Below are positions 23,469 through 42,874 of a DNA stretch of 64,000 bases, piece by piece (within the stretch, counting starts at the first letter, position 1; each line of letters begins with the position of its first letter). The position numbers and the translations under genes were made by a program. The notes beneath the pieces were generated by a model, which saw only the letters and a program-made list of their open reading frames with translations, was not told where the DNA came from and did no database searches. Origin of the DNA: Alphaproteobacteria bacterium (GTDB lineage Bacteria > Pseudomonadota > Alphaproteobacteria > MPNO01 > UBA830); assembly GCA_964291215.2 (NCBI GenBank), contig OZ219790.1, forward strand, positions 1 to 64,000, given 5' to 3'.

Positions 23469-23699
23469 TTCCCCGCCCGCAACAGTGTCGTGTCGGGCCG
23501 GTTCTTCCGACCGCCCCGCCACCCCTATACGACAATTCCACCCCCTCTCCAAGAACGCCGGCGGCGCGTTCAGGAAATTCCCGCGCCAAATTCTGTTTGA
23601 TTTCTCAGGGCAGCATCTGGGTATTGCGGGGGCGCGGGTTGGTGCGGGAGATTTTTTTGCAGTTTTCGCTGGCTTTCCTGCACTGGAGTTGTCATGGTG

Positions 23700-24458
23700 C
23701 GGGGATGTCGGTTCGCAAGCACATCGCGTCCGATTCACGTCGCAGCTCCGGAAGGGTCTGTCCGAGGTTCGCGAAGCCTGAGGAGCGTCCGCTGCGTTGA
23801 TGGACGACTATCTCGGGTTTCGCCGTCTGGCGGGGCTGCGCCATATTGCGTCCTTCAGGAGGCAGTGGTCTGGCCGGGGCCTTCAAGTGCCGCGACCGGT
23901 GGCTGGAAGCCGGAGCAGCAGTGGCCTGATCGCGAACAACACGCGACTGCTGGTGCGTGCGGCGCCGGGAACGTTTCCGAACCTTGCCTCCTTCTTTCTT
24001 GCGACGCGGCGGCTGGCCGACGACTGGGCCTGCGGCCACTAGGTGGTGGAGACGTTCTGTGATCCGGCGCGTTTTGCGGGCACAAGGCGGCGGGCTGGCG
24101 TGCCAGGGGGTTTGCCCGCGCCAACGAGCGCTGTACCGACCGCCATGGCAAGGAGATTTTCGTTGTGCGGCGCGACGGCGGCTGTCGCGCCCGCAGGCGC
24201 AGGCGCTGCCTGCCTCCTCGCTCCCCGGGGTTCCGAGGTGATGCGTTCGCTGCACGACGAGTTGGCGGCGATCGAGGACTTCCGCCGCGCAGGAAGCACA
24301 CGGTGTGCTCACGTTCTCGCCGAGCTTGCGAACATGAAAGGCAGCTGCGCAGTTTTCGCGGTCGCTGTCCCGGGACGAGCTTGAGGCCATCGGCGGAACC
24401 CGAGGACGGGGTTGCGCGAGCCGCCCTCCGGGGCGACTCTCCACCGGGCCGTCCGACC
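23700..24458 (+). pseudogene. ISAs1 transposase piece 1 (DUF4338-like domain + H-repeat-associated domain)
   Basis: Fragments LIANNTRLL, PNLASFFL, RLADDW, VETFCDPARFAGT, SLHDELAAIEDFRRA spread over frames; start approximate. Confidence 0.72.
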
Positions 24459-25957
24459 ATCGCGGTAGGGAACCGGGTTACCCCCCGCACAGAACCGGAC
24501 GTGCGCTGTTCGCTCCTCCCCTGACGACAAGGCGCTGGTTTGGCCACGGGCTCAGTGGGCAGCGGTGAGGGTGTCTATGTCCCCGGTGAAGTCCTTTTGG
24601 GAGCGTCGCCGAAGGGCACGCAGCTGTTTGCATTGGTGTATGAACTTCTGCAGGCTGCTTCCTGGAACGGCGTAGTAGCAGCCGTTGATAACTCACCACT
24701 TGGCCGTTTCGTGCCGGTTATCGTGCCACCGCCTGCGCAAGGCCTCCTTGATCCGCCGCAGGGTGCCCGTTTGCGACCGACCCTGAACCTGCCTTTCCTC
24801 GTCTGTTCGCAGAAGTGCGTCATGCCGAGGAAGTCGAACGTCTTGTCCGCGCTTCCGCGGTTTGCTCTGGCAAACCGACCGAACTCGATGATTTTCCGGG
24901 TGCAGTTCAAGTGGGCCAGTCTCTCCCCAAGGTCTCAGCGCCGCCCAGATGCTGAAAGCCGCACACGAAGTCGTCCGCATAATGATCGTGTCGCCTCCAG
25001 CCATCCGCTTGCGCCAGTGGTTCTGGAACCAGTCGTACGTAGTGCAGGTTCGCAAGGCATGGCGCCGCCCCTTGCGGTGTTCCCTTGCCAGTCGGTCCCT
25101 TCCATGACGCCGGCGTCACTTGATGATCAGACCCCCCGATCCGTTTCCCGAGCATCGCGACCAGATGGTCGAGATTGTCGAAGGGGCGTCAACGATCCAG
25201 TTGACCTTCCGCCGTTCCACCGTGACGGCGCATGATGCGCCCCGGCCGGAAGCCGTAACTAAACCCGAGGAACTCCGTCTCGCGGCACCAGAATCACACC
25301 GCCCGCTGAAGAATCTTGTCCGAGGCAAGTTGCCCTCCATCCTCCTTGGGTATGTAAACCCCGGAGGCGCCCGGTACGCACCCCTGTGCACACGGGCGTG
25401 CAGCAGTTCCACACCCTCCGCGTACGCTTGCCACACAACGCCCCGCCGCCGCGTCCTTCCTCAAGGAATGGAACGCATCGTGCAGAACGTCACGTGGTGG
25501 AGTAAAGACGCTCTTCCGGGTTCCTCTTCGCTACCTGCGTTCAGCCGCCTGTGACCCCCGCTTCTGCGCGCGGCGCGGGCCAACCGCATTGCCCTTCCCT
25601 CCAACAACTCCGCAGGCTCCGAAGAACCCTTGTTCGCCGCCTTCAGCGGTACTATGGCCGAATCTGACTTCTCGTTCATCATCGGTTTACGGAATTTCCT
25701 CTGCGGCCCCTCCACGACAGAGGGGCAAGACCTCCCAGGTCCCTGCTTCGGCCCTGGTTCTCGGACCCCGCGGAGCCCCCCTCACCAACGCGGCTCGTTG
25801 CCTTCGGCCACGACCTCGGCACTCCGGTTTCAAAGCATCTCGTGGCTCAATAGCCTGCCGCTCCCCAACGCTTCGCCTGGCGACGCATGGTTCACGGAGA
25901 AATTAGCCTCTCTCGGGACTTGCACCCGGCCACATTCCACCAGTTTGCCTGGCGCAC
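24459..25957 (-). mobile_element. Group II intron (degenerate)
   Basis: Minus strand starts GTGCG at 25957 and ends with domain V/VI GCACGTCCGGTTCTGTGCGGGGGG...CCCTACCGCGAT at 24459; removing it rejoins transposase D-P-E-A-L-Q. Confidence 0.9.
24560..25560 (-). pseudogene. ltrA: Intron reverse transcriptase/maturase, fragmented
   Basis: RVHRGAYRAPP, GTPQGA, YADDFVCGFQ, LELHPE, TFDFLGMTH in different frames; ends approximate. Confidence 0.85.
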
Positions 25958-26166
25958 CCGAGGCGCTTCAGGACGTGCCCGGCCGCGGGCTCGCCCGGGC
26001 GCTTACCGCCGACGGCAAGCGCATCCGCGGCGCCAACCGCCACCACGAGACCGTGGCCCTCACGCCTCCGGCGCACCCTTCGCGCTGTTGAACTTCGACG
26101 ACGGCGAGCTGGCGGCCACCTCCTCGAGCGCACCGATGTCCGTGGCAAGGTGATCACTTTCGACGC
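25958..26166 (+). pseudogene. ISAs1 transposase piece 2
   Basis: PEALQDV, ALTADGKRIRGANR, GKVITFDA. Confidence 0.8.
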
Positions 26167-26341
26167 ACCGATGGTGCCTAACCCGCAAGCGTCCGCCATC
26201 GCATGAACGGGCAGAAACCCCTGTGACGACAGAGCCTTATGGCCCGTCCCGCACCGCCGCGCGGCTTCCCCGACGAAACGCCGCCGCGGCTGCTTCCTGC
26301 ATTACCGCTCAGCCGCGCGGCCCGAACAGGGAGCCGCGACC

Positions 26342-28561
26342 ATGGCCGACAATCCGAAGTCCACCTTCGCCTGGCGCGTCCGCGCCGTCAAACTCCGAAC
26401 AACGAAATCCGCGACGATGTCGTGAGCGGACTAGCCCTGGCAGTCCTGGGACCCGGGAGACCAACGCCTGCATGGTCCGCAACCATATCCTGCCCGCCTT
26501 CGGTCATATGACGGTGGATGCCATCACGGTCGAACAGGTTCGGGACTGGTTCGCCTCCCCGAGCGACCGGCCCGGCGCCGCCAACCGCGCCATGCCGGTA
26601 CTGTCCATGATGATGCGCATGGCCGAGCTCTGGGGATACCGCGCCCATAACTCCAATCCCTGCAAGCATACCCGCCGCTAAAAAACAGGAGGTACTGTAA
26701 CTTGATGTCTGGAAATTTGTCTGAGGTTTGCGCTTTGAGGCGTTTCACTGGGGGGCTAGCCCCCCAGTGAAACGCGGCGCCATCGTACTATCCCATGGAG
26801 TTGCAAAACCTTCATGGAGGAAGCGAATGGACCTGCGACACACTACGACGATCGGGACTGTTTTGGAACATCTGATCGCAAACGGAGCAACGGATCTGGG
26901 GCGGGTCTTTGGCCAGCTCTTCGAGCTTGCGATGCAAATCGAGCGCGAGCAGTACTTGAAAGCGGGCCACCGGACGCCGGAGCGACAGGGCTATGCCAAC
27001 GGCTACAAGCGGATCGACACCCCCACTGTTACCGTTCAGGTGCCAAACGGTCACGGGGACGACCCGTCCCCAGTCGCTTGAACGCGGCCAGCGATCTTCT
27101 CGCGCCGTAGCCGAGATGTACATCAAGGGTGTTTCCACGCGGCAAGATGTAATGCGCGAGTTCGGGAGCCTGTCCTCTTCTCAGGTCAGCCGGGCCACCA
27201 GGTTGCTCGATGAAGAACTCGCCGCGCAACCGGCCCCTGATGAAATACCTGGATGCGCGCTACGAAAAAGCCCGCCATGACGGCGTTGTGCGCGATGTCG
27301 CAGTGCTCTCGGCCATCGGAATAGGGGCTGCAGGCACGTTCTGGGGCTCTCTGTGGCGCTCTCCGAGGCCGAGGTCCATTGGAGAGCCTTCCTGGAAAGC
27401 TTGCTAGCCCTGCATGGTACGACCTTCATCGTCTCGGATGCCGGGCTGAAAGCAGCACGACGCGCGGTGCTGGGCGCGGCGATGTGGCAGCGCTGCCAGT
27501 TCCACCTGGCGCAAAACGCCGTGCACCGAACAACGACATCAGGAAACGTATTGGAAAACAGCTCGGAGCCATGCGTCCTCACTCCAAACCGCCGAGGCGA
27601 ACTGGGCGCCCTCGTGGCCAGCTATCGCGACAAGCATCCAGGCTTCCTGGCTGGAAAACAATGCGGGGCTCGCTGTCTTCACCTTGCCCGATGCTCACCA
27701 CAAGCGTATGCGAACCTCGAACGGTATCGAGCGACCGATCCAGCAAGAGCTCAAGCGGCGCACCTCCAAAGTCAGGGTCTTTCCAAACCTCGCCTCGTTG
27801 GAGCGCCTCTCAACCGCGGTCCTCATCGACGAAAAATGGGAAACCGAAACCAAGATCAAATGGGAACAGCTCGATGACTGAGAGCTTCACGACAATTTCC
27901 AGACATCAGGTTGCGTAATCCTACAGGATGACGCCGAAGGAGCGGTTCCTTACGGCGGACGAAATGGACCGGCTCAACGCCGTGCTCGCCCGCGACGAGT
28001 TTTGGTGCCCGCACATCGTCGCCATCGTCCGCCTGCTGATGTTGACCGGCTGCCGCTTCGGCGAGATCGCCTCCCTCGAATGGGACTGGATCAGGGACAA
28101 GCGCATCCACCTTCCCGACTCGAAATCCGGGCCGCGCACGGTCTGGTTGTCGGACGCCGCGCGCGCCGTCATCGACGCCATCCCCCGATATAGCGCGGAT
28201 TGCCCGTATCTCTTGCCCGCCCGTTGGCCGACGCGGCCCATCGACAACATTGCCTTCCAAGTGGGACCGCATCCGCAACGAGGCCGGATTGCCCGGACTG
28301 CGCCTTCATGACCTGCGGCACACGTGGGCCTCGGTCGCCGCCATGAACGACGTGGACATGGTGACCGTCGCCAGGCTGCTCGGTCACGCCCTGGTCGAGA
28401 CCACGGAGCGCTATGTCCATCTCTCCGACCAGTCCGTCGCAGACGCCGCCGACCGGGTATCGAACCGCATCCATGCGGCCCTGGCCGGAAGGGAGGAAGG
28501 AAGCGGGCGGGCGCCCTGCGTCCGACCCAGGCTGACATCCAGCCCAAGGGAGCCCTCGGCT
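26342..28561 (+). pseudogene. Tyrosine recombinase 1 of element A (deleted, IS256-interrupted, frameshifted)
   Basis: Near-identical to 34470-35669; TGCRFGE, HDLRH, LLGH..TTERY. Confidence 0.88.
26691..27920 (+). mobile_element. IS256-family element, transposase pseudogene
   Basis: IRs sharing TGATGTCTGGAAATT; GYANGYK, AEMYIKGVSTR, WQRCQFH, RTSNGIER, FPN; TSD CTACAGGA at 27921-27928 (left copy has extra A's). Confidence 0.9.
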
Positions 28562-29754
28562 ATGTCCACATTTGACCTCACGCCGCGCCTTGCCCGCGAG
28601 GCCAGGTCCAACGGCAAGGACACCATTCTGTTCGACAAGGCGCTCACCGGTTTCGGGCTGCGTATCCATCCCTCGGGCCGCAAGGTCTGGATCGTCCAGG
28701 CCCGCATCGAGGGGCGGAGCCGGCGCATCGTCATTGCCCGGCACGGCGAGATGGAGTTGGCCCAAGCCCGCCGCCGCGCCCGCGACATGCTCGCGCGCAT
28801 CCGTGCGGGCGAGAACCCCGCCGACGACATCCGGAGGGAGAAGGAGACCCCAACCTTCCGGCAGTTCGCCGACGAGTATCTGCGGCGCTCGGACCCGCTC
28901 TGGAAGCCCTCCGGGCGCAGGACAGTGCGCATCTATCTCAAGGCCCGCATCTCCTGCCCGCATTCGGCGGGATACCGCTCGACAACATCGGACCCGAGGA
29001 TGTGGCCGTGTGGTTCGACGCGGCGAGCAGGGAAAAACCCGGCGCGGCCAATCGCGCCTTCGAGATATTGCGCGCCATGATGTTCCGGGCCGAGGAGTGG
29101 GGATTTCGCGAACGCGGAACCAACCCCTGTCTCGGTATCGCAAGGAACCTAGAGAAGAAGATTGCCCGGTTTCTCGACGCGGAAGAGCTGGCCCGGCTCG
29201 GGCGTGCACTCGACGCCAGCGAAGACCGCTGGCCCGAGGCCGTCGCCGCCATCCGCCTGCTCGCGCTTATCGGCTGCCGCCGCGGCGAGGTGCTCAACTT
29301 GCGCTGGCGCAACATCGGCGCGGTCGCCTTGAACCTCGGCGATTCGAAAACTGGGCCCCGCACGGTTCCGCTCGGCGAGGCCGCGCGTGCACTCATCAAG
29401 GCGCTGCCCGGCCCCCGCACGCCTTCCTGTTCCCGAAGAACGCCGGACGGCAGAACCCGCACAAAATCGTCGCCTGCTGGCGCGCCGTCTGCGAAGACGC
29501 GAAGCTCGGCAGGCTGCGCCTGCACGACCTCCGCCACACGGCGGCCAGCCACGCCGTCATGGCGGGCGAAAACCTGCCCATGGTCGGCAAATTGCTTGGC
29601 CACCGGCGTCATCGCACGACGGCAGGCTATGCCCACCTCGCCGATACCCATCTCGTCGAGGCGGCCGAAAAGGTCGGGAGCGCCATTGCGGCGGCTATGT
29701 GGAAGGAGGAACGGCACCGCCGCCTCCCCATCCCCGCCCGTATCGCAGGCATGA
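28562..29754 (+). pseudogene. Tyrosine recombinase 2 of element A (frameshifted)
   Basis: GFGLRIHPSGRK arm domain, GCRRGE, HDLRH, LLGH..TTAGY; frameshifts near 28950 and 29420. Confidence 0.88.
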
Positions 29755-30003
29755 CCGCTGAAAGCATTGGGGGTCAAGCAAGGTTCCGTCGCCCGTGGCG
29801 TCGGATGACCCCGGGTATGCCGGGTGCGTGCAGCAGCCCAAGTCTCCACCAACTCCGACCGGTTGAGCAGCGGCCCGACCGTCCGCCGGTTGGGCGTGGC
29901 GTCTTCGGTCACGAACCGCAGGTCAAGCCGGCCGGCGCACAGCCGTTCGAGATCGCCGCGCATCTCCCGGCCCGGATCGGGCGAGGCCGCTTGGCCGCAC
30001 GGA

Positions 30004-31270
30004 TCAGTTCTTGTGGGCGCCGAAGGCACCGTCCATATGGCCCTCGGTTCCGTAGTACCGTAGTACGCGCTGAACCTGCCGTAGAGGCCGGCCGGTTGGC
30101 TGTTGGCGCCGCCCGGCGGCGTCCCCTTGCTGTTGTTGAAGAAGCTGATCCAGAGGGCTTTCGACGGGGTTGGGGCTCACGCCCTTCACCCCGTCGATGC
30201 TCCATGCTGTTATGCCATACCCGCTACTATAATCAATGTCGACCTGCTCCAGATCGACCTTCCAGTTGCGGCTCTGCCCGCCCACCATGAACTCGGTAAT
30301 CGTGACCGTCCCGATCGCGGTGCCGTCGCCGAAGGCGCGGTCACCGTGGCCTTGGCCGTCCACTTGCCGGCCTCGTCGGTCTGACTCTCCCGTTTCAGGG
30401 CATACATGCAGACCCCCGCCCCCGAGTAGGTCGCCGTGCCTGTCACCCCGGCGGTGACGGGTGCCGGGTCTTCGGCATACCATTCTTCATCTTCGGTATC
30501 CCGATACTGGCCATAGGCCAACTCCCTGAAGGCCAGCGTGCCGTTCTGCTTGTCCTTCCGCAACCACCAGCCGAAGTACGTGTACCTGTCGTCCGTTGTG
30601 CCGTCCGAGGCCGGCGCCTCAAGGTCCGCGTAGAGCACGAGGGTGTGTTCGTAGCTGTCGTCACTGCCGGTCGCGCGGGTGCCGGCCCATCCGTGGAGGG
30701 CAGGGAGCTTCACCGACGTCACGGGGATCTCCCCTCGGAACTCCAGCTCCCCATACTTCCCATCGTCGCGCACTTCGTCGTAGATCTTGAGGCCCATCGC
30801 CTTGCTGTGCACCGCCGAGGTAAAGTCCCATTCCTGATCGATGAGGAGTTGCCTGCTATCTTCGCCCGTGCCCACACTTCTGTGTTCGAGCGCGGCGAAC
30901 AGCTTGGCGACATCTAGGGAAGGCGTTGCCGGCGGAGGCGCACCGCCAGTCGAGGGCGTTCCATCATCCGGAGGCGTCAGCATCACCGTCGGCATAGGTG
31001 GCCGTCTTGTCGTCACCGACAGTGACCATGCAGTCCGCGCCGCCGGCCGGGCAGCTGTAGGTGAGATCGCCAAGCGTCCCGCTTTCGCCAGCGGCGATAG
31101 TCAAGGTCCCGGCCATGATCGCGGCCTCATCGAGGCTGGACAGGTCCAGAGGCTTCGGTGTCGGCATCACCGTCACGCTTGCCGTCCCGGACGACCCGCC
31201 GCCAGGGCCGCATGTTTCATCGTTCTCATCGAACCCTTCTCCTTCTCTCAGACCGGACCGACCGGGCAAA
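30004..31270 (-). pseudogene. Surface protein with TbpB-like C-terminal barrel (frameshifted)
   Basis: Joined frames: CPAGGADCMVTV, YTYFGWW, GTATYSG, C-terminal GHMDGAFGA. Confidence 0.55.
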
Positions 31271-31587
31271 CCGTTTGAACCGTTCCTGCGTTTCCCGAAC
31301 CGCCCTCAGAAGCCGAGCGTGATTCCGGTCACGAAGCCGGCGCCCTCGACAGTGCTGCCAGCGGTGCTTTTGCTCTCGTCTTCGGCGAACTTGCTGCGTT
31401 GCCTCTCGGCTATGATCAGCGAGTTCACTAGTCAATGCCCGGCGGCGCCTCCGTGCGCGGACATGCCCACCAAGATCATCGCGACCGCGCGCGCGAGTGA
31501 CTTGCTTCGCCTCCCCCATGCTGCCGGATGCCCGATGTCTTCCGGCATGGCGGCCGGGGCGAGGTCGTCACCCCGGCCGCCGAATCA

Positions 31588-33618
31588 CTAGGCGCCGAAA
31601 ACGAAGTCGAAGTCGTCGATGGTCAGGGAGCCCATGCTGGTGTCGAGCAGTGTGATGGTGTCTCCCGCATTGCCGTAGCCGATGACGGTATCGCGGCCGT
31701 CCTGGCGGATCTTCAGCGACTCGAAAGCGGCTTCGTCCGAGGTGTCGCCCGAAACGTTGAGATGAAGCTCGATTTTATCCGTCCACCCATTGGCCAGGGC
31801 CTTCTTCTCGGCCGCAACGTGATCTTCGTAAGTGGGCAAGTATCCGTCGCTGCCACTGAACCCGAAGCCGAAATCCTCGATCGTGTCCTGCCCGTCGCCC
31901 TCGTGGAACACGAAGGTCTCGGCCCCCCAGCTGCTCCCCATGGTGTCGTTGCCCTTGCCGCCAACCACGGTGTCGTCACCCCAGCTGCAGTGTATGGTGT
32001 CGTTGCCGGCCCCGCCGTAGATCTCGTCATCGCCCCAGCTGCCGTCCAGGGTGTCGTCGCCGGCCCCGCCGTGGAGGATATCGTCGCCCCAGCTACCTTT
32101 CAGGGTATCGTCGCCGGCCCCGCCGTGGAGGATATCGTCGCCCCAGCTACCTTTCAGGGTATCGTCGCCGGCATAGCCGTAGATGCATGCGTCCTCCCAG
32201 AAGCCTCTCAGGGTGTCGGCGCCGCTGGTGCCGTGGAGAGTGACGACGCAGTCGTGAATGCCGTCGCTGAAGATGTTCCCGATATCGAGAGGGTTGCCGC
32301 CGTCGTTGTCGTCATCCCTATCGTCCTCAACGTCGAGCGGACCATCGCCCGAAATGCCCGGGACCGTGTCCCCGCCGCCGTCATTGTTGGCATTCGGGTT
32401 GCCGCCGTCGTTGTCGTCATCCCTATCGTCCTCAACGTCGAGCGGACCATCGCCCGAAATGCCCGGGACCGTGTCCCCGCCGCCGTCATTGTTGGCATTC
32501 GGGTCGCCGCCGTCATTGTTGGCATTCGGGTCGCCGCCGTCGTTGTTGGCATTCGGATCGCCGCCGTCGTTGTCGCTCGTACTGGCGCCGTACACGACCG
32601 TTTCACTGCCGCCAGCAGGCAGGATGAAGTCGTTCGCATCCAGGCTGTCTGCCGACACGCCCGACAGCGTGATGGTATCGCCGGCGTTGCCGTAGCGAAT
32701 GACGGTATCGGCGCCGTCCTGCTCGATGACCAGCGCCTCGAACCCGCCGGTCACGCCATCAAGGCGGATCTCGTCGCCCGCCCCGAAATCGGTGATCGTG
32801 TCGGCGCCGTCTCCTGCCTCGAACACGAAGGTGTCGTCGCCGCGGCCACCCGTCAGCGTATCGTCGCCCGCGCCGCCGATCAGCGTGTCGGAGCCCTTGC
32901 CGCCCCTCAGCGTATCGTCGCCCGCGCCGCCTTTCAGCGTGTCGGAGCCCTTGCCGCCCCGAAGGGTGTCGCCGCCATCACCACCTGTCAGCGTGTCATC
33001 ATCCATGCCGCCCTTCAGGGTGATCCCGTCGCTGCCGCCCGTCTGCGTGCTCTCGCCGGGGCCCTTCGGCGCATCGCCGGACGTGCCGTCCGGCGGCGCA
33101 CTCTGTGCAAGAGCGTCCTCGTCGCCATCTTCTGGCGGAACCGTCTCCACGGGCAGAAACCGGAAGTCGTCCGCGCCCAGGGAGGTCGCCGTCACGTACT
33201 CCAGCGTGATCTTGTCGCCATCACCGTAGCGGATGACGGTATTGGAGCCTTCCTGCTCGATCACCAGATCCCCGAAACCGCCGGGCACGCCGGCGATCTC
33301 GATGATGTCGCCGGCCTCGAAACCGGTGATGCGGTCGGCGCCGTCCCCGACCGCGAACACGAAGGTGTCCGCCCCCATGCCGCCATAGAGGTAGTCGTTG
33401 CCTCGGCCGCCGGTCAGCGTGTCGTCGCCCTGACCGCCGAACAGGCTGTCGATGCCGTCACCCCCCTCGAGCGTGTCGTCCCCGTTGCCGCCATACAGCG
33501 TGTCGACACCGCCGCCGCCGGACAGCGTGTCGTCGCCAAGGCCGCCATCCAGCGTGTCATCGCCGATACCACCCGTCAGTGTGTCGTCGCCGGCCCCGCC
33601 GGTTTGCTCGATAGCCAT
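31588..33618 (-). CDS. RTX/hemolysin-type Ca-binding repeat protein (676 aa)
   Basis: Many GGxGDDTL nonamers in three blocks, each followed by DTFVF..G.D.ITDF..DTVIRYG; GGGAG RBS before MAIEQ. Confidence 0.9.
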   Translation of the reverse strand: MAIEQTGGAGDDTLTGGIGDDTLDGGLGDDTLSGGGGVDTLYGGNGDDTLEGGDGIDSLFGGQGDDTLTGGRGNDYLYGGMGADTFVFAVGDGADRITGFEAGDIIEIAGVPGGFGDLVIEQEGSNTVIRYGDGDKITLEYVTATSLGADDFRFLPVETVPPEDGDEDALAQSAPPDGTSGDAPKGPGESTQTGGSDGITLKGGMDDDTLTGGDGGDTLRGGKGSDTLKGGAGDDTLRGGKGSDTLIGGAGDDTLTGGRGDDTFVFEAGDGADTITDFGAGDEIRLDGVTGGFEALVIEQDGADTVIRYGNAGDTITLSGVSADSLDANDFILPAGGSETVVYGASTSDNDGGDPNANNDGGDPNANNDGGDPNANNDGGGDTVPGISGDGPLDVEDDRDDDNDGGNPNANNDGGGDTVPGISGDGPLDVEDDRDDDNDGGNPLDIGNIFSDGIHDCVVTLHGTSGADTLRGFWEDACIYGYAGDDTLKGSWGDDILHGGAGDDTLKGSWGDDILHGGAGDDTLDGSWGDDEIYGGAGNDTIHCSWGDDTVVGGKGNDTMGSSWGAETFVFHEGDGQDTIEDFGFGFSGSDGYLPTYEDHVAAEKKALANGWTDKIELHLNVSGDTSDEAAFESLKIRQDGRDTVIGYGNAGDTITLLDTSMGSLTIDDFDFVFGA
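32291..32572. repeat. Intragenic tandem repeats: 2 x 105 bp plus about 3 x 27 bp
   Basis: 32291-32395 duplicated at 32396-32500, followed by DPNANNDGG units. Confidence 0.9.
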
Positions 33619-33652
33619 TGCAATACACTCCCGATTTCTTTCAAGGTGGTAC

Positions 33653-33681: not shown

Positions 33682-33789
33682 GCAAGTCGAGAAATTTTTT
33701 TGCCTGTTCGACCGCAGGAGATGGTGGGCGGTCTTGTGTTCCGGCGTGTTCGGTTGTCCGGCTGCCGGGGTCCGGCGCACTTGACTGGC

Positions 33790-34020
33790 AGCAGGCGCGA
33801 CAGCGTTCCGCGCCGCCTCACGTTCCAACCCGCATCGTCCATGCTCTCAAGTTCGCCCGGGTGCGGCGGGTTCTACATCGGACCGACGCGATCGCCAGCA
33901 ACATCGTTCATGGTCATCGCTCCCTTTCTGTCAGCGACAGTCGATCAGGTCCACGGCCTCGCCGTCCTCGAAGCGGAACACCACGCGCCATTTGTCGGAA
34001 ACGCTACACTGGCCCGTACG
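33790..34020 (-). pseudogene. higBA remnant of element A
   Basis: WRVVFRFEDGEAVDLID identical to 40945-41000; deleted higA fragments. Confidence 0.8.
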
Positions 34021-34033
34021 GCCGCTGACGTTA

Positions 34034-34289
34034 CAGGCCGGGCAAATGACGCTGCCGATGAACGGGACAGCGTACATTGCACCATTCCCTCGTGCTTCCT
34101 GTAGCGCCGCCCGGAAGCCGCGCGGCGGTTCGCAGGATTGTCTCTGCAAGTGCGCGGCGGGCGCTGCCGCTCAAGCGCCGCTCGGGCTGAATGCCGATGA
34201 CACAACGGCTTGCATCGCCCGACGGGTTGAGCGGTCAGGAAGCGCGATTGCAACACTCTTCTCGGCGTGGTGGTTTTCACACCCGACGC
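34034..34289. repeat. Conserved right end of element A
   Basis: Collinear high-identity copy at 41320-41573. Confidence 0.9.
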
Positions 34290-34469
34290 GCCAAGGGCGC
34301 AAATCCCGCCAGCGCCCGCCATCGCATGAACGGGCAGAAACCCCTGTGACGACAGGGCCTTATGGCCCGTCCCGTCCCGCACCGCCGCGCGGCTTCCCCG
34401 ACGAAACGCCGCCGCGGCTGCTTCCTGCATTACCGCTCAGCCGCGCGGCCCGAACAGGGAGCCGCGATC

Positions 34470-36845
34470 ATGGCCGAAAGGTCCACCTTCGCCCGGCGCG
34501 TCCGCGCCGCCAAACCCCGAACAACGGGGTACGAAATCCGCGACGATGTCGTGAGCGGACTCGCGCTGACGATCCAGCCTACCGGAGTCCGGACCTTCTT
34601 CCTCGCCCGCATGGTGCGCGGGCGCAGGCGCTACGCCACCATCGGCAGCGCCGAGGCCATCCCAGAGGCGCGGCGCGAGGCCCGCAGGCTCATCGCCAGC
34701 TATCCGGCGAAGACGGACAACGGACCCCGCACGCCGGGACACCCGATGGACGCCTTCGCCGCCGAGTTCCTCGACCGGCAGGCCCGGCACTGGAAGCCCT
34801 GGACCCTGGAGACCAACGCCTGCATGGTCCGCAACCATATCCTGCCCGCCTTCGGTCATATGACCGTGGACGCCATCACGGTCGAACAGGTTCGGGACTG
34901 GTTCGCCTCCCTGAGCGACCGGCCCGGCATCGCCAACCGCGCCATGCCGGTGCTGTCCATGATGATGCGCATGGCCGAGCTCTGGGGATACCGCGCCCAT
35001 AACTCAAATCCCTGCAGTAACACCAGGCGATACCGGATGCAGGCGAAGGAGCGGTTCCTGACCGCCGACGAGATGGCCCGGCTCAACGCCGTGCTGACCC
35101 GCGACGAGTTCTGGTGCCCGCATATCGTCGCCGTCATTCGTTTGCTGATGCTGACCGGCTGCCGCTTCAGCGAGATCGCCTCCCTCGAATGGGACTGGAT
35201 CAGGGACAAGCGCATCCACCTTCCCGACTCGAAATCCGGGCCGCGCACGGTCTGGCTGTCGGACGCCGCGCGCGCCGTCATCGACGCCATCCCCCGATAT
35301 AGCGCGGATTGCCCCTATCTCTTTCCCGCCCGTCCGCCGACGCGGCCCATCGACAACATTGCCTTCCGGTGGGACCGCATCCGCAACGAGGCCGGATTGC
35401 CCGGACTGCGCCTTCATGACCTGCGGCATACGTGGGCCTCGGTCGCCGCCATGAACGACGTGGACATGGTGACCGTCGCCAGGCTGCTCGGTCACGCCCT
35501 GGTCGAGACCACCGAACGCTACGTCCATCTCTCCGACCAATCCGTCGCCGACGCCGCCGACCGGGTATCGAACCGCATCCATGCGGCCCTGGCCGGAAGG
35601 GAGGAAGGAAGCGGGCGGGCGCCCTGCGTCCGACCCAGGCTGACATCCATCCCAAGGGAGCCCTCGGCCATGTCCACATTTGACCTCACGCCGCGCCTTG
35701 CCCGCGAGGCCAGGTCCAACGGCAAGGACACCATCCTGTTCGACAGGACGCTCGCCGGTTTCGGGCTGCGTATCCATCCCTCGGGCCGCAAGGTCTGGAT
35801 CGTCCAGGCCCGCATCGAGGGGCGGAGCCGCCGTATCGTCATTGCCCGGCACGGCGAGATGGAGTTGGCCCAAGCCCGCCGCCGCGCCCGCGACATGCTC
35901 GCGCGCATCCGTGCGGGCGAGAACCCGGCCGACGACATCCGAAGTGAAAGGGAGACCCCGACCTTCCGGCAGTTCGCGAACGAGTATCTGCGGCGCTGCG
36001 AACCGCTCTGGAAGCCCTCCGGGCGCAGGACAGTGCGCATCTATCTCAAGGCCCGCATCCTGCCCGCTTTCGGCGGCATGCCGGTGGACCGTGTCGGACC
36101 CGAGGATGTCGCCGCGTGGTTCGACGCGGCGAGCAGGGACAAGCCCGGCGCGGCCAATCGCGCCTTCGAGATATTGCGCGCGATGATGTTCCGGGCCGAG
36201 GAATGGGGATTGCGCGAACGCGGCTCAAACCCCTGTCTCGGCATCGCCAGGAACCCGGCGAAGAAGGTTGCCCGGTTCCTCGACGCGGAAGAGCTGGCCC
36301 GGCTCGGGCGCGCGCTCGACGACCACCAGGACCGATGGCCCGAGGCCGTCGCCGCCATCCGCCTGCTGGCGCTTACCGGCTGCCGCCGCAGCGAGGTGCT
36401 CAACCTGCGCTGGCGCAACATTGGCGCGGACGCCTTGAACCTCGGCGATTCGAAAACCGGCCCGCGCGCCGTGCCGCTCGGCGAGGCCGCGCGGGCGCTC
36501 ATCGAGGCGCTGCCCGGCCTCCGCGACCAGGACGCGTTCCTGTTCCCGCGCCATGCCGAAGGCCGGGGCGCCAGCAGCCTCGCGACCTGCTGGCGCACGG
36601 TCTGCGAGGATGTCAGGCTCGGCAGGGTCCGCCTGCACGACCTGCGCCACACCGCAGCGAGCCACGCCGTCATGGCGGGCGAAAACCTGCCCCTGGTCGG
36701 CAAGCTGCTCGGCCACCGCAGGCATCGTACGACGGCAGGCTACGCCCACCTCGCCGATACCCATCTCGTCGAGGCGGCGGAAAAAGTCGGGAACATCATT
36801 GCGCAGGCGATGGCTTACAGCCATCGTTCGCAATCCTTGTCGTAA
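34470..36845 (+). CDS. Two tyrosine recombinases in one ORF (791 aa; internal start 35670)
   Basis: Two arm-binding domains and two R..HxLRH..LGH..Y sets; no stop in the linker; AAGGGAG before the second ATG. Confidence 0.88.
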   Translation: MAERSTFARRVRAAKPRTTGYEIRDDVVSGLALTIQPTGVRTFFLARMVRGRRRYATIGSAEAIPEARREARRLIASYPAKTDNGPRTPGHPMDAFAAEFLDRQARHWKPWTLETNACMVRNHILPAFGHMTVDAITVEQVRDWFASLSDRPGIANRAMPVLSMMMRMAELWGYRAHNSNPCSNTRRYRMQAKERFLTADEMARLNAVLTRDEFWCPHIVAVIRLLMLTGCRFSEIASLEWDWIRDKRIHLPDSKSGPRTVWLSDAARAVIDAIPRYSADCPYLFPARPPTRPIDNIAFRWDRIRNEAGLPGLRLHDLRHTWASVAAMNDVDMVTVARLLGHALVETTERYVHLSDQSVADAADRVSNRIHAALAGREEGSGRAPCVRPRLTSIPREPSAMSTFDLTPRLAREARSNGKDTILFDRTLAGFGLRIHPSGRKVWIVQARIEGRSRRIVIARHGEMELAQARRRARDMLARIRAGENPADDIRSERETPTFRQFANEYLRRCEPLWKPSGRRTVRIYLKARILPAFGGMPVDRVGPEDVAAWFDAASRDKPGAANRAFEILRAMMFRAEEWGLRERGSNPCLGIARNPAKKVARFLDAEELARLGRALDDHQDRWPEAVAAIRLLALTGCRRSEVLNLRWRNIGADALNLGDSKTGPRAVPLGEAARALIEALPGLRDQDAFLFPRHAEGRGASSLATCWRTVCEDVRLGRVRLHDLRHTAASHAVMAGENLPLVGKLLGHRRHRTTAGYAHLADTHLVEAAEKVGNIIAQAMAYSHRSQSLS

Positions 36846-36890
36846 AGTCATGAAACTGTGTCCTGATCTACACGTTATGATACATTCGTC

Positions 36891-37703
36891 TTACCGAGGC
36901 AAGTCATAATACCAATTCACGTTCTGGGAGCTAACCATAACAACCCGATCCCAGAAGTCGAAATCCTGATCCCGGACAAACGACAATTCATGCTCCGAAA
37001 GCATCTGCATTGGCGCGAGGCAAACGTGGTCAACGAGAATAAGCCACCAGCTTTCATATGCTCCAATCTTTTTCTGTTCGCGAATTTTTTTCGACTTTTC
37101 ACGAATTATGTTTTGGGCGCTTATTTTCATTTCGTCAGCTACGATAATACCTTTCCCATCCGACACATTTGACACGAAGAACTTTTCCGGGCTATGAGGA
37201 ACCTCTGTCAGATCAAGGCAAATGCCGCATTCCAGACAGAGATGAGGATACCCAATCTCATCCAAACTTTGTTCGGCGTGCCTGCTGGAATCGAAGTGCC
37301 TTGCCCACATGCCTTTAATCACACTGTCGTCATATGGCTTCAAGAGTGGCTCCAGCGCATCCGATATTTGGGTTTTAACTGTCCTGCGATTTGGTAGCCG
37401 CACGGAGAAGTCGTACTCGCAATCGATGTTCCAACTCCGTCCTTCATTTCCGGGTGACCCAAGTTGCTCAATTGTTTTTTTGATCTGATCTGTCAGCGGT
37501 ATCCGTACCTCCTCTTCTCCCTTGGAATGGTTGTCAGAGCCACCGTTTATCCTTTGGTTTAGCCGAGTCACTTCCACCGCCAATTTCCCATCCACAACGA
37601 AATCAGGCGGATTGTTGCACTGCTTCCGAATATCACCGTATCCTTGGGCTTTCAACCACTTCTGGGCAATGACTTCATCGTCGTTTTGGCGCTGCCTGCT
37701 CAT
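36891..37703 (-). CDS. Hypothetical low-GC protein, putative PD-(D/E)xK-fold nuclease
   Basis: PPDFVVDGKLAVEVT motif; visibly AT-richer than its flanks. Confidence 0.55.
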   Translation of the reverse strand: MSRQRQNDDEVIAQKWLKAQGYGDIRKQCNNPPDFVVDGKLAVEVTRLNQRINGGSDNHSKGEEEVRIPLTDQIKKTIEQLGSPGNEGRSWNIDCEYDFSVRLPNRRTVKTQISDALEPLLKPYDDSVIKGMWARHFDSSRHAEQSLDEIGYPHLCLECGICLDLTEVPHSPEKFFVSNVSDGKGIIVADEMKISAQNIIREKSKKIREQKKIGAYESWWLILVDHVCLAPMQMLSEHELSFVRDQDFDFWDRVVMVSSQNVNWYYDLPR

Positions 37704-37737
37704 TTCAAACTCCGTATTGCGGCCTGTTTTGCCCAAG

Positions 37738-40566
37738 TCACCTTGAGGCTGATCCGCGCACCCGATGCCTGGAGCGTCGTTTCGGTTGCCGGCGCATGAC
37801 AGTATCCAGAGGCACGCGCATGCTCTCATACAGCATGAACAGGTGCTCGACGCGTTCGCGCTCGGAGGAGAACCGCCTCTGCCGGTATAGCCGGTCCACC
37901 GCTCGGTCGAGGCGCGTGTGGGCGCGGCGGAGGGTTGGAGGCATGAGATCGGGGTCGTAGATGTCCGCCAGGGTTGCGTCCGGGTGGGCGGCACGGGCGT
38001 CGAGGACGGCCTGGGCCAGCGGCTCCAGATTCGACAACAGGTCCGCCTCGCCGGAAGCGAAGCCGGGCGGGGTCGGGAAGGTGTTATAGACGAGACCGAT
38101 GGAATAACGGTAATCGCTCTTGAGCCGCCCACCGACATGGCGCAACCATGCCATGTGCATCGCCGAGGTGAGCAGTGCGAAGTCGGTCAGGGTCGCGTTT
38201 TCCAGAACGCGGACGAGGTTGCTGGGAATCGTTGGAGGCTCCAGCCAGCCGATGGGCGCGTATTCTCGCCGCTCCGAACTGACCTCGGGGATCACCAGGA
38301 ACGGCGAGGTGGGGATGACGTTGACATGGTAGAGCGTCGGTGTCGTCGCGAGTTTGCGTGTCGGCGCGCTCTTGCTGGCCTCGCGGTAGGAGCGAACGGC
38401 AGCGATCCGCTTACGGACGCGCGGCAACTGCGCCAGCACCCCGGGCGATGTGTCTTGCAAGGCCAGAATCCACCGCTCGCCGCCTTGCAGATACTCGCGA
38501 GCGCCGACATAGGGGCGCAAATATGGCGCGGCGTCCGGTTCCGCTTCCAATAGTTCGGCGCGTTCCGCCGCGTCGAAGATGTAGTTGCCGCCGTCAATGG
38601 GCTTGGAGCCGATGATCAGTCGTCCCATCCCGTTGATCGGCGCGCTTTCCTCCCGCACCACCAGATGCGGGTCCGACAGCCCGCCCGCATCGAACAGATA
38701 GGGTGACAGCGCCCCGTGGCGGCTTTCCTCCGGGTCGCCGCTGATGTCGGGATAGCTGAACAGGCGCTTTTCGGCCGGCGCGTCCTCCCGGCGGTCGAGG
38801 CCGAGGATGACGACATGCACATGCGCCCTGCCGCGCGCATCCGATCCCCATGCGAAGGTCCGGTGCGCGAACGCAATCTCCAGCTTGCCGCGCCCGAACA
38901 GCACCGGCCATAGCTGCGCGACCTGCTCGCCCTGGGTGATCGAGTTGGTCGCGACGAAGCCGACCCGGGCTTCGCCGCCCTGCACATACTTCCCTGCCTT
39001 GATGAACCATGCGGCGACATAATCGAGCGTGCCGCCGCTCTTGCCGAGGGCCGCGACCCCGCGCACCTGCGCACGCTGATCCGGCGTCTGGTACTTCGCG
39101 CCGACGAACGGCGGATTGCCCAGCACGAACGAACACTCGCCCGGCGGCAGCAATTCGGACCAGTCGGTTTCCAGCGCGTCGCCGTGGACGATCTGCGGCG
39201 ACTTCTCGAGCGGGATACGCGCGTAGCTCCGGCCGAACTCCAGACTCAGCCGGTTGTTCATGATGTGGTCCATCATCCACAACGCGGTCTCCGCGATCCG
39301 GGTCGGGAACTCGCCAAGCTCGATCCCGTGAAACTGGTCCACCTCCACCACCGACTGCCATGCGGTGTCGAGCACTGCCTGCCCGGTCGCCGCCGTCGCC
39401 TCCCGAATCTCGCGAATGACCTCGATTTCCAGCAGCCGCAATTCCCGGTAGGCGATGATGAGGAAGTTGCCGCAGCCGCACGCCGGGTCGAAAAACGTCA
39501 GGCGGCCGAGCTTCGCCTGGAACTGGCGCAGCGCCGCGAGGCGGCCCCGGCGCGCTTTCACCCGCCCGAACTCCGCGCGCAGGTCGTCCATGAACAGCGG
39601 CTCCATCACCTTGAGGATGTTCTTCTCGGTCGTGTAGTGCGCCCCTTGGGCGCGGCGCTCCGCCGGGTCCATCACCGACTGGAACAGCGCACCGAAGATC
39701 GCGGGAGAGATGTTCGACCAGTCGAAGCGGCAGGCGTCCAGCAACGCCCCGCGCATCGCCGTGTCGAACGAGAAGGTCCGCAGATGCCCCTCGAACAGGT
39801 CGCCGTTGACATAGGGAAAACGCGCCAGGTCCTCGTCGAGCGTCGCAGCGCGCTCGTCCTCCGGCGTATCGAGCACCTCGAACAGTTGCGCGAGCCACGG
39901 TCCGAGATCGGCCCCGTCCTCGCCGGTGCGCGTTTCGATGAAGTCGAGGAAGATGTCGCGCGGCTCGAACACCCCGGTGTCGTCGGCGAACATGCAAAAC
40001 ACTACCCGCACAAGGAAGCGTTCCAGATCGTGGCCCCCGTGTCCGGCACCGGCGAGCGCGTCGTGCAGCCGCCCGACCAGCTCGGCGGCTTCGATGTTCG
40101 CCGGGTCCTGGTCCCGGAACGTCCGGCGCTGCACGCCCAGGATGAAGCCGAACGACTCGACATGCGCGGGCAGGTCCGCCAGCGGGAAGACAACGGTCCC
40201 CCGCTCGTCGAGATCATGAAGCTCGAAGGTCCGGAAGTCGCTCACCAGGATGAAGCGCGGGCGCTCGCGGTCCGGCAGCGCGTCGAAATACTCCCCGGCC
40301 TGTTCGTACGCTCTCCGGAGATCGCGCCCGGCGCTCTTCTGCTCGACGATGAGCACGCCCGGCCAGAACAGGTCGATGAAGCCCGAACGGTTGTCCAGCT
40401 TGGAGACGTGCTGCTCGTAGCGCGCGACGTTGCGCCGCCGCACGCCGAACACGTCGAAGAAGGCGTTGTAGAAGCTCTGCGTCTCGCCCTTCTCATAGGC
40501 CGCATCGCACCACTCTTCGGCGAAGGCCGCCGCCCGCGCCCGCACCTCGTTCCACGACAGACGCAT
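37738..40566 (-). CDS. MmeI-like type IIL restriction-modification enzyme
   Basis: GFIDLFWPGVLIVEQKS nuclease, GAHYT, FFDPACGCGNF, GNPPF, GRLKSDYRYS, TLADIYDPDLMP. Confidence 0.92.
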   Translation of the reverse strand: MRLSWNEVRARAAAFAEEWCDAAYEKGETQSFYNAFFDVFGVRRRNVARYEQHVSKLDNRSGFIDLFWPGVLIVEQKSAGRDLRRAYEQAGEYFDALPDRERPRFILVSDFRTFELHDLDERGTVVFPLADLPAHVESFGFILGVQRRTFRDQDPANIEAAELVGRLHDALAGAGHGGHDLERFLVRVVFCMFADDTGVFEPRDIFLDFIETRTGEDGADLGPWLAQLFEVLDTPEDERAATLDEDLARFPYVNGDLFEGHLRTFSFDTAMRGALLDACRFDWSNISPAIFGALFQSVMDPAERRAQGAHYTTEKNILKVMEPLFMDDLRAEFGRVKARRGRLAALRQFQAKLGRLTFFDPACGCGNFLIIAYRELRLLEIEVIREIREATAATGQAVLDTAWQSVVEVDQFHGIELGEFPTRIAETALWMMDHIMNNRLSLEFGRSYARIPLEKSPQIVHGDALETDWSELLPPGECSFVLGNPPFVGAKYQTPDQRAQVRGVAALGKSGGTLDYVAAWFIKAGKYVQGGEARVGFVATNSITQGEQVAQLWPVLFGRGKLEIAFAHRTFAWGSDARGRAHVHVVILGLDRREDAPAEKRLFSYPDISGDPEESRHGALSPYLFDAGGLSDPHLVVREESAPINGMGRLIIGSKPIDGGNYIFDAAERAELLEAEPDAAPYLRPYVGAREYLQGGERWILALQDTSPGVLAQLPRVRKRIAAVRSYREASKSAPTRKLATTPTLYHVNVIPTSPFLVIPEVSSERREYAPIGWLEPPTIPSNLVRVLENATLTDFALLTSAMHMAWLRHVGGRLKSDYRYSIGLVYNTFPTPPGFASGEADLLSNLEPLAQAVLDARAAHPDATLADIYDPDLMPPTLRRAHTRLDRAVDRLYRQRRFSSERERVEHLFMLYESMRVPLDTVMRRQPKRRSRHRVRGSASR

Positions 40567-40603
40567 CAGTCAGACCCGACCGCACCGACGGCGGAAGCCT
40601 CGA

Positions 40604-40927
40604 TCATGCGTACAACGCACCCGCACGCCGTCCGGCGGCAACCCGGTCCCGGCGCGCCTGTGCAAGCTCGTAGCTCGCCTGCATCCGCATCCAGTGTTCG
40701 GCGGTTCCCCAGCCGATATCCTCCAGCGCCAGCGCCATTTTGGCCGACACCCCCGCCTTGCCGTTCAGCAGGCGCGACAGCGTTCCGCGCTCGCAACCGA
40801 GCCGAGCCGCCGTACCGGTCACGTTCCAGCCCACATCGTCCATGCTCTCGCGGATCAGTTCGCCCAGGTGCGGCGGGTTCCGCATCGGACCGACGCGCTC
40901 GTTTTCAATGTCGTTCATGGTCAGCAC
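40604..40927 (-). CDS. higA: HigA antitoxin
   Basis: NPPHLGELI, HTH, LSRLLNGKAGVS..MAL, WMRMQASY. Confidence 0.9.
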   Translation of the reverse strand: MLTMNDIENERVGPMRNPPHLGELIRESMDDVGWNVTGTAARLGCERGTLSRLLNGKAGVSAKMALALEDIGWGTAEHWMRMQASYELAQARRDRVAAGRRAGALYA

Positions 40928-40936
40928 CCCATTCGG

Positions 40937-41203
40937 TCAGTGATAGTCGATCAGGTCCACGGCCTCGCCGTCCTCGAAGCGGAACACCACGCGCCAGTTG
41001 CCCGAGACGCGGACGCTCCACTGGCCCGCACGACCGCCCTTCAGGGGATGCAGCCGGAAGCCCGGCGCGTCGGCGCTGCCCGGATGCGTTGCCTCTTGCA
41101 GCCGAAACAGGATGCGCTTCAGTCGTGGCGCGAGAGTAGCAGGCACCCGTACGGGATTGTCCCGCTCGTGCAGCGCCCGCAATCCCTTGTGCCTGATCTT
41201 CAT
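40937..41203 (-). CDS. higB: HigB (RelE-family) toxin
   Basis: HKGL, RLHPLKG, WSVRVSGNWRVVFRF, terminal DYH. Confidence 0.92.
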   Translation of the reverse strand: MKIRHKGLRALHERDNPVRVPATLAPRLKRILFRLQEATHPGSADAPGFRLHPLKGGRAGQWSVRVSGNWRVVFRFEDGEAVDLIDYH

Positions 41204-41319
41204 GATTGACTATGGCGCGCCACGCCACGCGCCGCAAGCATCCGCCGCGTCGTCGCGTTCAGCGGCAATGCTGCGGAGCGGTAGCGGGAGCGTCCGGGCC
41301 CGCACCACCGCCGACGGCG

Positions 41320-41573
41320 CAGACCGGGCGAATGACGCTACCGATGAACGGGACTTCGCGCATTGCATCGTTCCCTCGTGCTTCCTATAGTGCCGCTTGG
41401 AAGCCGCGCGGCGGTTCGCAGGACTGTCTTCGCAAGTGCGCGGCGGGCGCTGTCGCTCAAGCGCCGCTCGGGCTGAATGCCGGTGGCACAACGGCTTGCA
41501 TGGCCCGACGGGTTGAGCGGTCAGGAAGCGCGATTGGAACGCCCTTCGGCGCGGTGGTTCACACACCCGACGC
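41320..41573. repeat. Conserved right end of element B
   Basis: Copy of 34034-34289. Confidence 0.9.
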
Positions 41574-42085
41574 GCTGCACACGACGCTGGCGACGCTGAT
41601 CACCCGGCGCTGCGGCGCAGACCAGGTCTTCCCGGTCAAGGGCGCCCGAAACCTTCGACGGCATCGACCGGGAGACGGATGCCAGCGGCCGCTTCAGGGA
41701 GGCAAGGCCCGCCTCGAGCAGCGCTCGATACGTGCCGCTCGAGGACCTGATCAACTACCCCGGCCAGACCGCCCGCATGCTACCGCAAGCCGCCGGGAAA
41801 GAGCGCCAGCGGCGCAGCGAGCGGCAACGACTGCACCGGTACATCATCACCTCGATCGATGCGCAACACGCGTCGCCAGAGGAACTGCTGCGGCCGCGGG
41901 CTGTGGAAAACATGAACCACCGAGACTGCGTCTTCGGCGAGGACGCCTGCCTGACCCGCAAACCGCGCCAGCCTCGACAACATCGCGCTCGCGGTGATCT
42001 TCGCCAACCGACGCGAGAGCCTTGCCGAAACACGGCAGCGGCTCGACCGCCGGGAAGCCGTCGCAGCCCTGAGCGCCAATGGTGT
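41574..42085 (+). pseudogene. ISAs1 transposase piece 3
   Basis: [34 protein letters not shown]; end approximate. Confidence 0.82.
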
Positions 42086-42319
42086 CCGGCCGATTCCCGG
42101 ACGCCGCCCACAACCCGCCCACATCCCGAAAACAACCCGCCCACGCGCCGCCGGCGACGACCGCGGACGGCTCCGAAGCCGGAAAACCCGGCACGCCGTG
42201 AAACCTCCGGACAGCAGAAGACAGCAAAATTGAATGCAGCGTGGGAAAGGCATGCGGCGCGTTGCGTCCGCGTTGCCGGCGATATATGTCTTTGGATCGG
42301 CAACGGACGAAAGACAGAG

Positions 42320-42835: not shown

Positions 42836-42874
42836 CGGATTTCGCCTCCGATCGCTGGCGACCGGACCTCGCCT

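Follow-up and report, generated by a model that had tools for sequence, protein, structure and literature searches.

A nested mobile-element island built on one ISAs1 element in an alphaproteobacterial genome, and the short deletions shared by its component families

What becomes of insertion sequences (ISs), introns and integrases that pile up at one place in a genome in which their relatives are numerous? The question is raised by an island of 18,684 bp between a DUF2461 gene and gpt in an alphaproteobacterium (UBA830 lineage), which lies in the 64,000-nt stretch of DNA analysed here (the window; positions 1-64000 of contig C1 of the source genome, G000). The island consists of one ISAs1-family IS holding a group II intron, two tandem integrative elements (A and B) and, inside A, an IS256-family element, all of later arrival; it is likely immobile, and the dozens of 5-7-bp deletions in its multi-copy parts were probably acquired through deletion-biased gene conversion over short patches, with other copies in the genome as donors. 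The source genome (6.15 Mb, 64% GC, two contigs, 99.3% complete) is rich in repeats: for about 35% of its sequence, one or more further copies exist elsewhere. For comparison we used G001, a genome of the same genus with a 94% identical DUF2461 gene, three further genomes of the genus (G002, G003 and G004), and contigs derived from the reads of three runs of one study, which were assembled separately and among which the source sample may be included.

One ISAs1 element as the frame of the island

The island, its host flanks and its nested parts are as follows.

22710..23468, minus strand: intact DUF2461 gene, left host flank (PF09365 positions 1-208 of 208)
23562..23570, plus strand: left repeat of the target site duplication (TSD) of 9 bp, CGGCGCGTT (repeat and empty-site comparison)
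23571..24458, plus strand: IS piece 1, left inverted repeat (IR) and N-terminal part of the transposase (DUF4338-type), with 27 small deletions (family ends, homolog and sister-copy alignment)
24459..25957, minus strand: group II intron at an ectopic site, with domains 5 and 6 (D5/D6) and the reverse transcriptase gene broken, carrying 52 of the 59 deletion hotspots of its family (ends GTGCG...CGAT; RF02005, 65.8 bits)
25958..26166, plus strand: IS piece 2, of which the last 6 bp form the core CGACGC (26161-26166), inside the codons of an ITLDALH motif (alignments)
26167..34289, plus strand: two-integrase integrative element A, 8,123 bp, with its integrase pair broken (domain search, core-bounded ends)
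~26691..27920, plus strand: IS256-family element splitting the first integrase gene of A, carrying 16 of 23 family hotspots (PF00872, Transposase_mut; IS256 ends)
34284..34289, plus strand: core CGACGC at the A/B joint, where the right end of A is fused to the left end of B in the manner of a circle junction
34290..41573, plus strand: two-integrase integrative element B, 7,284 bp (integrases, core-bounded ends)
41568..41573, plus strand: core CGACGC at the B/IS joint
41574..42254, plus strand: IS piece 3, comprising the catalytic C-terminal part and, in its terminal CATG variant, the right IR, with 11 small deletions (family ends, alignments)
42255..42263, plus strand: right copy of the TSD, CGGCGCGTT (repeat and empty-site comparison)
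42320..42835, plus strand: intact xanthine phosphoribosyltransferase gene gpt, the host flank on the right (NF006613 at 250 bits, cut-off 138)

A preliminary description of this DNA had reported a perfect 9-bp TSD around the whole island, and both copies were located. Because this 9-mer is common, occurring six times on the plus strand of the window and 339 times in the genome, the TSD required independent proof, which was supplied by an empty site in G001. There, positions 1-2358 of one locus (L002) correspond to window positions 21225-23570 and positions 2350-3756 to 42255-43662; the two halves of the alignment overlap by 9 bp, which is the single CGGCGCGTT of a site with the same breakpoints and without the island, as the preliminary description had anticipated for a relative. 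Of 15 same-family loci, 14 have DUF2461 and gpt no more than 1.5 kb apart; none of 4 loci of other families has the two genes as neighbours. The sole same-family exception was G002, in which the two genes are about 1 Mb apart (G002:C1:1091480 and C1:2067362). Read-derived contigs bridged the left island junction in all three runs and, among the contig pieces listed, the right junction in two of the three. A promoter scan of the empty site found no promoter. The sizes given earlier proved exact on re-measurement: the intron accounts for 1,499 bp and A and B together for 15,407 bp, leaving 1,778 bp of IS. The nested island is ordinary in kind, a cleanly readable pile-up.

That a single ISAs1 element encloses all of the other parts was borne out by the three IS pieces, which when rejoined were colinear with an uninterrupted genomic copy (positions 15-1072, 1086-1325 and 1320-2058 of 2,064) and with one intact 608-aa transposase homolog. 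They differed from the uninterrupted copy by 4-6% mismatches and by 42 gaps that removed 286 bp, 35 of the gaps being 5-8 bp long; split twice and carrying these gaps, the window copy has no intact DDE transposase gene. The least-broken sister copy matched the ISAs1 model NF033564 (91 bits against a cut-off of 70) and gave 484 homolog matches, the best of them proteins of 606-608 aa with PF14236, PF13808 and PF01609; the intact homologs of this length, from other assemblies, were at most 85% identical. The transposase had no match in PADLOC. Members of the ISAs1 family have short terminal IRs and duplicate 8-10 bp of target. Among 30 end pairings tested in this genome, many of them non-cognate, perfect TSDs of 9 bp were found at four and of 10 bp at three. 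The element thus agrees with the long form of the family (PF14236, PF13808 and PF01609) in its model match, its 9-10-bp TSDs and the three domains of its homologs, but unlike intact family members every copy examined in G000 was damaged, and the window copy is also split twice. The imperfect 18-bp IRs noted previously agree at 11 of 18 positions and both are typical of the family, to judge by 44 left and 81 right end matches in the genome; the right end reads CATG, found in 2 of the 81 right ends, in place of CAGG, found in 57. Among copies, IR positions ~4-9 were strongly variable (window ends at 23571-23587 and 42238-42254), while the outer CAG and inner ACGC were kept.

Deletions of 5-7 bp shared among repeat copies

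Deletions were scored against the least-deleted natural copy of each family. Four unrelated families (two ISAs1 types, the intron and IS256) all exhibited a size peak at 6-7 bp and a trough at 2-4 bp, with median loads of 12-26 deletions per kb against 2.7-5.9% mismatches. In the IS, the intron and IS256, dozens of 5-7-bp deletions occupied fixed positions and were common to tens of genomic copies: 107 of 321 distinct deletions of 5-8 bp were present in more than half of the copies covering them, compared with 2 of 106 deletions of 1-4 bp. The missing bases are present in intact proteins of other genomes and in Rfam models, so the direction of change is loss. Deletion patterns among copies were mosaic rather than a nested series, and linkage between single-nucleotide polymorphisms (SNPs) decayed within tens of bases (for IS256, r2 was 0.18 below 15 bp and 0.03 at 30-60 bp, with a null of 0.013). 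Such rapid decay shows short-tract exchange, and the combination of mosaic alleles with short-range linkage decay is that by which ectopic gene conversion is recognized.

The load rose with copy number. Across five rising copy-number classes, each represented by 120 sampled 500-bp segments, the number of 5-8-bp gaps per 100 mismatches was 3.6, 6.2, 10.4, 18.9 and 28.6. In 133 kb of single-copy DNA (22 alignments from 20 stretches of G001, compared in the absence of an outgroup), 5-7 bp were missing at 26 sites in G000 and at none in G001, a rate of about 0.2 per kb, or roughly 1/100 of the load in repeats with 50-100 copies. Both alleles were found at 5-7-bp sites in contigs from the three runs, the short allele often being the deeper. 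The peak was not confined to the source genome, since in one family of G002 (30 loci) 50 of 79 distinct deletions were 5-7 bp long, alongside eight identical undeleted copies. No peak was found in G004 (41 pairs, 0.27 per kb); G003, with too little repeat data, and G001, with no copy pairs, were uninformative in this comparison.

A subfamily of seven introns, ~9% diverged from the main intron family, allowed exchange to be followed between distinguishable sequences. The subfamily shared the main-family deletion at 15 of 16 hotspots with at least 8 identical bases on both sides, as opposed to 7 of 22 otherwise (p=1.7e-4, 38 hotspots); the 8-nt flank was one of five thresholds tried, all of which gave p<0.003. 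The proportion of cells in which crossing had occurred between the intron subfamilies was 51 of 102 for deletions and 45 of 753 for diagnostic SNPs. Of the 13 hotspots at which the lost bases are not the same, 12 nonetheless had the deletion in common, a result easier to reconcile with a short strand that brings in the junction than with a guide that reads the intact site.

The proposed spread of the deletions and its alternatives

The mechanism we infer has four steps. This lineage would make occasional 5-7-bp deletions anywhere in its DNA; a short single strand from a deleted copy would then anneal to an intact copy through some eight or more matching bases on each side, looping out the 5-7 bases; mismatch repair would reject patches with SNPs or loops of 1-4 bases and overlook loops of five or more; and the shorter strand would usually win. 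MutS recognition would have its threshold at loops of 5 bases, and strand annealing would favour deletions over insertions. If mismatch repair is blind to loops of at least 5 bases, only deletions of that size would spread, each family would gather the deletions arising in all of its copies, and it would therefore die in proportion to copy number. In a published account, mismatch repair stops recombination where substitutions or small indels occur and misses large loops (PMC8918686). We regard it as fairly probable that biased, templated spread is real; templated spread after insertion is indicated both by the window intron, alone at its site and rich in family deletions, and by the crossing of deletions between the intron subfamilies.

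Several points weigh against this reading. No molecular intermediate has been seen, and the direction of the bias is deduced from end states. Conversion itself erases flanking differences, so the flank-identity test is partly circular, and the calls of differences within deleted bases depend on gap placement and on a small number of undeleted copies. For the 5-base MutS threshold and for the edge that deletions would have in annealing, the reading draws on general background. The sites of the 5-7-bp deletions offered little clue to their origin: microhomology was mildly enriched, and they yielded no motif, hairpin or outside template, junction 14-mers being no commoner than random ones in the single-copy DNA of the genome itself, where they were sought. 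RecJ and ExoVII, whose loss would favour annealing, are present, and RecT was not found. G004 has the same repair genes and a multi-copy ISAs1, yet no peak; the single-copy comparison has no outgroup to polarize it; and deletion load was uncorrelated with the private SNP count of a copy (p 0.06-0.67). Loss of a repair gene as the cause was rejected, because MutS, MutL and RecA (as open frames), RecJ and ExoVII were present in all five genus genomes.

The best-surviving alternative, that copies lose the same bases independently at slippage or end-joining hotspots set by the sequence, with no template, is nevertheless improbable. Microhomology of at least 2 nt was found at 43 of 108 ISAs1 sites, a mild enrichment over the ~20% expected; dependence on local identity would be equally expected of such hotspots, and single-copy DNA shows the same size class. 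However, 35-44% of sites had no microhomology although the same breakpoints recurred there, and no sequence motif or protospacer-adjacent motif (PAM) was detected at the hotspots, only a weak G/C periodicity and slightly GC-richer flanks (0.655 vs 0.628), nor any hairpin signal. The deletion recurs where the deleted bases differ, the rise with copy number is unpredicted by independent loss, and searches for Ku and ATP-dependent ligase found neither.

Less probable still are heavily deleted master copies, amplified in trans and then shuffled by ordinary, unbiased gene conversion. SNPs are shuffled too, 46 of 68 introns share a single site within another repeat, as whose passengers they could have travelled, and gene conversion among non-functional IS copies is reportedly what maintains them, judging by the title of a 2009 study by Cordaux. 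Unbiased conversion, however, would move SNPs as readily as deletions, against the disparity seen between the intron subfamilies; the subfamily introns and the window intron are at unrelated sites; deletions of 1-4 bp remain rare; and a master would have to carry, per substitution, ~100 times more deletions than are seen in single-copy DNA.

Very unlikely, in our estimation, is a guided nuclease (CRISPR, Argonaute or similar) that cuts repeats at fixed sites and leaves repair scars of 5-7 bp. The genome does contain two CRISPR arrays (G000:C1:574173-581202 and C2:2068487-2069557, with 97 and 17 repeats and cas1 nearby) and two cas1 genes, and hotspots are spaced a median of 23-34 bp apart. Yet none of 112 spacers matched the four families beyond 14 nt, no PAM-like motif was seen, multi-allelic clusters were as frequent as at random (38 vs 35 +/- 4), Piwi was not found, and mismatches within the deleted bases gave no protection. 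An artefact of assembly or polishing, limited to the repeats, might be suspected from the concentration of the deletions there and from the absence of the sequencing platform from the record. It is scarcely credible given both alleles in contigs from three runs, the short one often at higher depth, the eight identical undeleted copies of G002 beside copies with the same peak, and the whole host and MmeI genes.

Deletion-biased conversion between copies, to return to the favoured reading, shares features with several described systems. Published passages on Wolbachia describe an IS-rich genome with copies split by nested insertions (18 cases) and mostly degraded (PMC3205602), the same nesting and degradation as in G000; the decay in that source comprises substitutions and deletions in general, whereas G000 has a shared 5-7-bp size class. 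The gene conversion named in the 2009 title likewise concerns exchange among dispersed dead copies; exchange in G000 appears in addition to be size-selective and biased to loss. Bacterial pseudogenes, as summarized in one survey, accumulate small deletions, ~40% with microhomology, that follow a power law with an excess at multiples of 3 (PMC6054270). Small deletions and the share of microhomology are common to that spectrum and ours, but ours has a 2-4-bp trough and a 5-7-bp peak in which 5 and 7 are abundant, and the same deletions in many copies. The nearest strand-annealing mechanism is SPDIR (for short-patch double illegitimate recombination), in which, according to the preprint, ectopic single strands pair through short matches and become incorporated at the fork, which produces microindels, an event very rare in the wild type, with heterologous donors and variable changes of 3-100 bp (bioRxiv 10.1101/2023.11.22.568220). 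In G000 the donors would instead be homologous copies, no outside template having been found in its own single-copy DNA, and RecA and RecJ are present.

The nearest outcome is that of fungal repeat-induced point mutation (RIP). RIP introduces C-to-T changes through a dedicated methyltransferase-like enzyme in the sexual cycle, and more copies bring more inactivation. In G000 too the damage scales with repetition; unlike RIP, it consists of 5-7-bp deletions, no dedicated enzyme was identified, and it is possibly a by-product. We lean, with some reserve, toward the wider proposal that some IS-bloated bacteria have a deletion-based counterpart of RIP, in which size-selective, deletion-biased exchange between dispersed repeats carries 5-7-bp deletions into all element families with many copies, kills transposases, integrases and ribozymes according to copy number and spares single-copy genes. 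It is unlikely that the spread evolved as a defence and has a dedicated enzyme, instead of following from the limits of mismatch repair as a by-product. A literature search, which reached few subscription papers, found no account of bacterial repeats with shared, size-selective deletions. The erosion is well measured and was seen in two species, and the mechanism proposed for it is testable; the contrast within the genus (G000 and G002 with the peak, G004 lacking it) makes the cause directly searchable. The matter bears on how bursts of IS are silenced without removal of the elements and on the origin of bacterial deletion bias: if it is true, the spread of short deletions between repeats would provide copy-number-dependent extinction of IS families and introns.

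Order of events, mobility and cargo

The preliminary description had read a complete order of events from the island. The nesting upholds its two ends, the IS having come first and IS256 after A; the order of A and B, and of the intron relative to both, is unreadable, because the A/B joint is identical whichever came first. It had also proposed that a dead IS served as a neutral landing pad. The landing-pad effect was evident in the genome at large, as 113 of 216 IS256 ends lay in multi-copy DNA against a background of 29.5% (p=4e-12), so that nesting is the rule in this genome; the excess is as expected if insertion into other mobile DNA is tolerated. ISAs1-family ends were not enriched in repeats (25 of 103). 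Death of the IS before the first insertion was not borne out in the same way, for the element target is whole in the window copy and in only 2 of 32 other copies, and much of the IS decay therefore came later. The only hint of earlier damage comes from a deletion of 8 bp that lies 5 bp away from the intron junction and is present in one other copy too.

The window intron, whose ends fit the group II rule (GUGYG at the 5' end, AY at the 3' end), was inserted without target duplication. Of the 68 intron 5' ends that the genome holds, 46 were at one target in another repeat, eight followed another intron head to tail and 14, that of the window intron among them, were at single sites; the window intron is the only one of the 68 at its site and so likely arrived as a working RNA. 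The catalytic D5/D6 model RF00029 was not found in it and was found in the least-deleted genomic copy (43.4 bits). Given arrival as a working RNA, the present loss of D5/D6 and the large majority of family hotspots that the intron carries, its deletions were likely acquired after insertion. In the head-to-tail introns the 3' end of one is joined directly to the 5' end of the next, in runs of up to three (e.g. G000:C2:1320035-1324966, C2:151332-157109 and C2:123810-128783).

IS256-family elements duplicate ~8 bp of target. The duplication around the IS256 copy in A is imperfect, its left copy (26680-26690) containing five extra A, and a matching target repeat was kept in only 10 of 49 near-complete IS256 copies. 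Runs of A or T adjoin several other IS256 ends. Contigs without this IS256 were present in all three read runs.

It had further been suggested that the whole island might be moved in trans as a cargo transposon. Both ends and a perfect TSD persist, and an incoming element could bring an enzyme, since the intact homologs described above exist elsewhere. The suggestion is not supported, however, by what this 99%-complete genome contains: the intact ISAs1 transposase with the same IRs for which a search had been advised was not found, more than 90% of the homolog profile being covered by only 2 of 324 matching open segments and none having all three transposase motifs. The first of the two has nine in-frame gaps and HR for HW, and the second, from a related family, is likewise damaged with its HW changed. 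Nine 60-mers spanning the island junctions each occurred once in this genome, so no second copy of the island is present there; the right IR end is mutated, and the empty site shows one insertion event only. In 12 of 33 ISAs1 copies the same 1.3-kb insert was found at the same position and orientation (the site corresponds to window 23766; e.g. G000:C1:924707 and C1:2494592), which could mark amplified composites and so favour movement of cargo, but the insert looks IS110-type, presumably, by a motif, and could have inserted independently in each copy; either site-specific insertion or amplified composites would account for it. Movement of the island as one cargo transposon is accordingly highly improbable, and the island is likely immobile. 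At G000:C2:266718 and C2:344623, right and left IS ends on opposite strands had a common 9-mer, GGCCTGCGG, the arrangement to be expected had two IS copies undergone an inversion between them.

Elements A and B carry the following genes.

30210..31073, minus strand: cargo of A, 287-aa open reading frame (ORF), with a weak lead to a TbpB/FHBP-type barrel (no Pfam match; Atlas 0.90, low recognition)
31588..33828, minus strand: cargo of A, ORF for an RTX calcium-binding repeat protein (PF00353, 10 stretches)
33818..34025, minus strand: higBA-like remnant near the right end of A (82% to the higBA region of B, two 6-bp gaps)
34362..36845, plus strand: 827-aa ORF in B, two tyrosine integrases in one frame (domain search, homologs, A/B comparison)
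36891..37727, minus strand: cargo of B, conserved hypothetical protein of 278 aa (Atlas 0.95, to clusters without a name)
37738..40566, minus strand: cargo of B, full-length MmeI-like restriction-methylase (five MmeI Pfam domains; PDB 5HR4 residues 1-904, E 1e-264)
40604..41203, minus strand: cargo of B, higB-higA toxin-antitoxin pair (PF05015, TIGR02607)

Both elements open with a tyrosine integrase pair and are bounded by the core CGACGC, which falls among the codons for the ITLDALH motif. In having a pair of ~400-aa integrases at one end, a short core repeat and a non-tRNA target they resemble two-integrase (Arm-DNA-bind_3 / P4-type) elements; unlike the usual elements, these two are arranged in tandem within a gene of an IS, their core measures 6 bp and both integrase pairs are damaged. 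The idea that they are ISAs1-specific parasites was rejected, because other right ends of the element family lie in unrelated DNA. A circular excision joint was not among the read-derived contigs listed, contigs being the only material in which it was sought.

The 827-aa ORF of B was considered as a genuine fusion protein and this was disfavoured: its close homologs are separate proteins of 394-435 aa (full-length fused integrases having been left out of the homolog search), and for both A and B the read-derived contigs include an allele that is 7 bp longer where the fusion lies. A 7-bp deletion common to A and B joins the frames, and the ORF has two more in-frame 6-bp losses. The double integrase is likely a decay product, and fused or frameshifted mobile genes in this genome, of which this ORF is an example, should be annotated as such products.

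The cargo of the island is not all dead, to judge from gene content, as B has a full-length MmeI-like enzyme and higBA; together (37738-41203) these could help to retain the island while the integrases of B decay. HigB of B may be two residues short near its end relative to more distant copies. The RTX-repeat gene (31588-33828) has several relatives, 70-78% similar, elsewhere in the genome, and about 20 loci in G000 hold further two-integrase pairs, some of them broken (e.g. C1:175702-178037 and C2:3048575-3050794).

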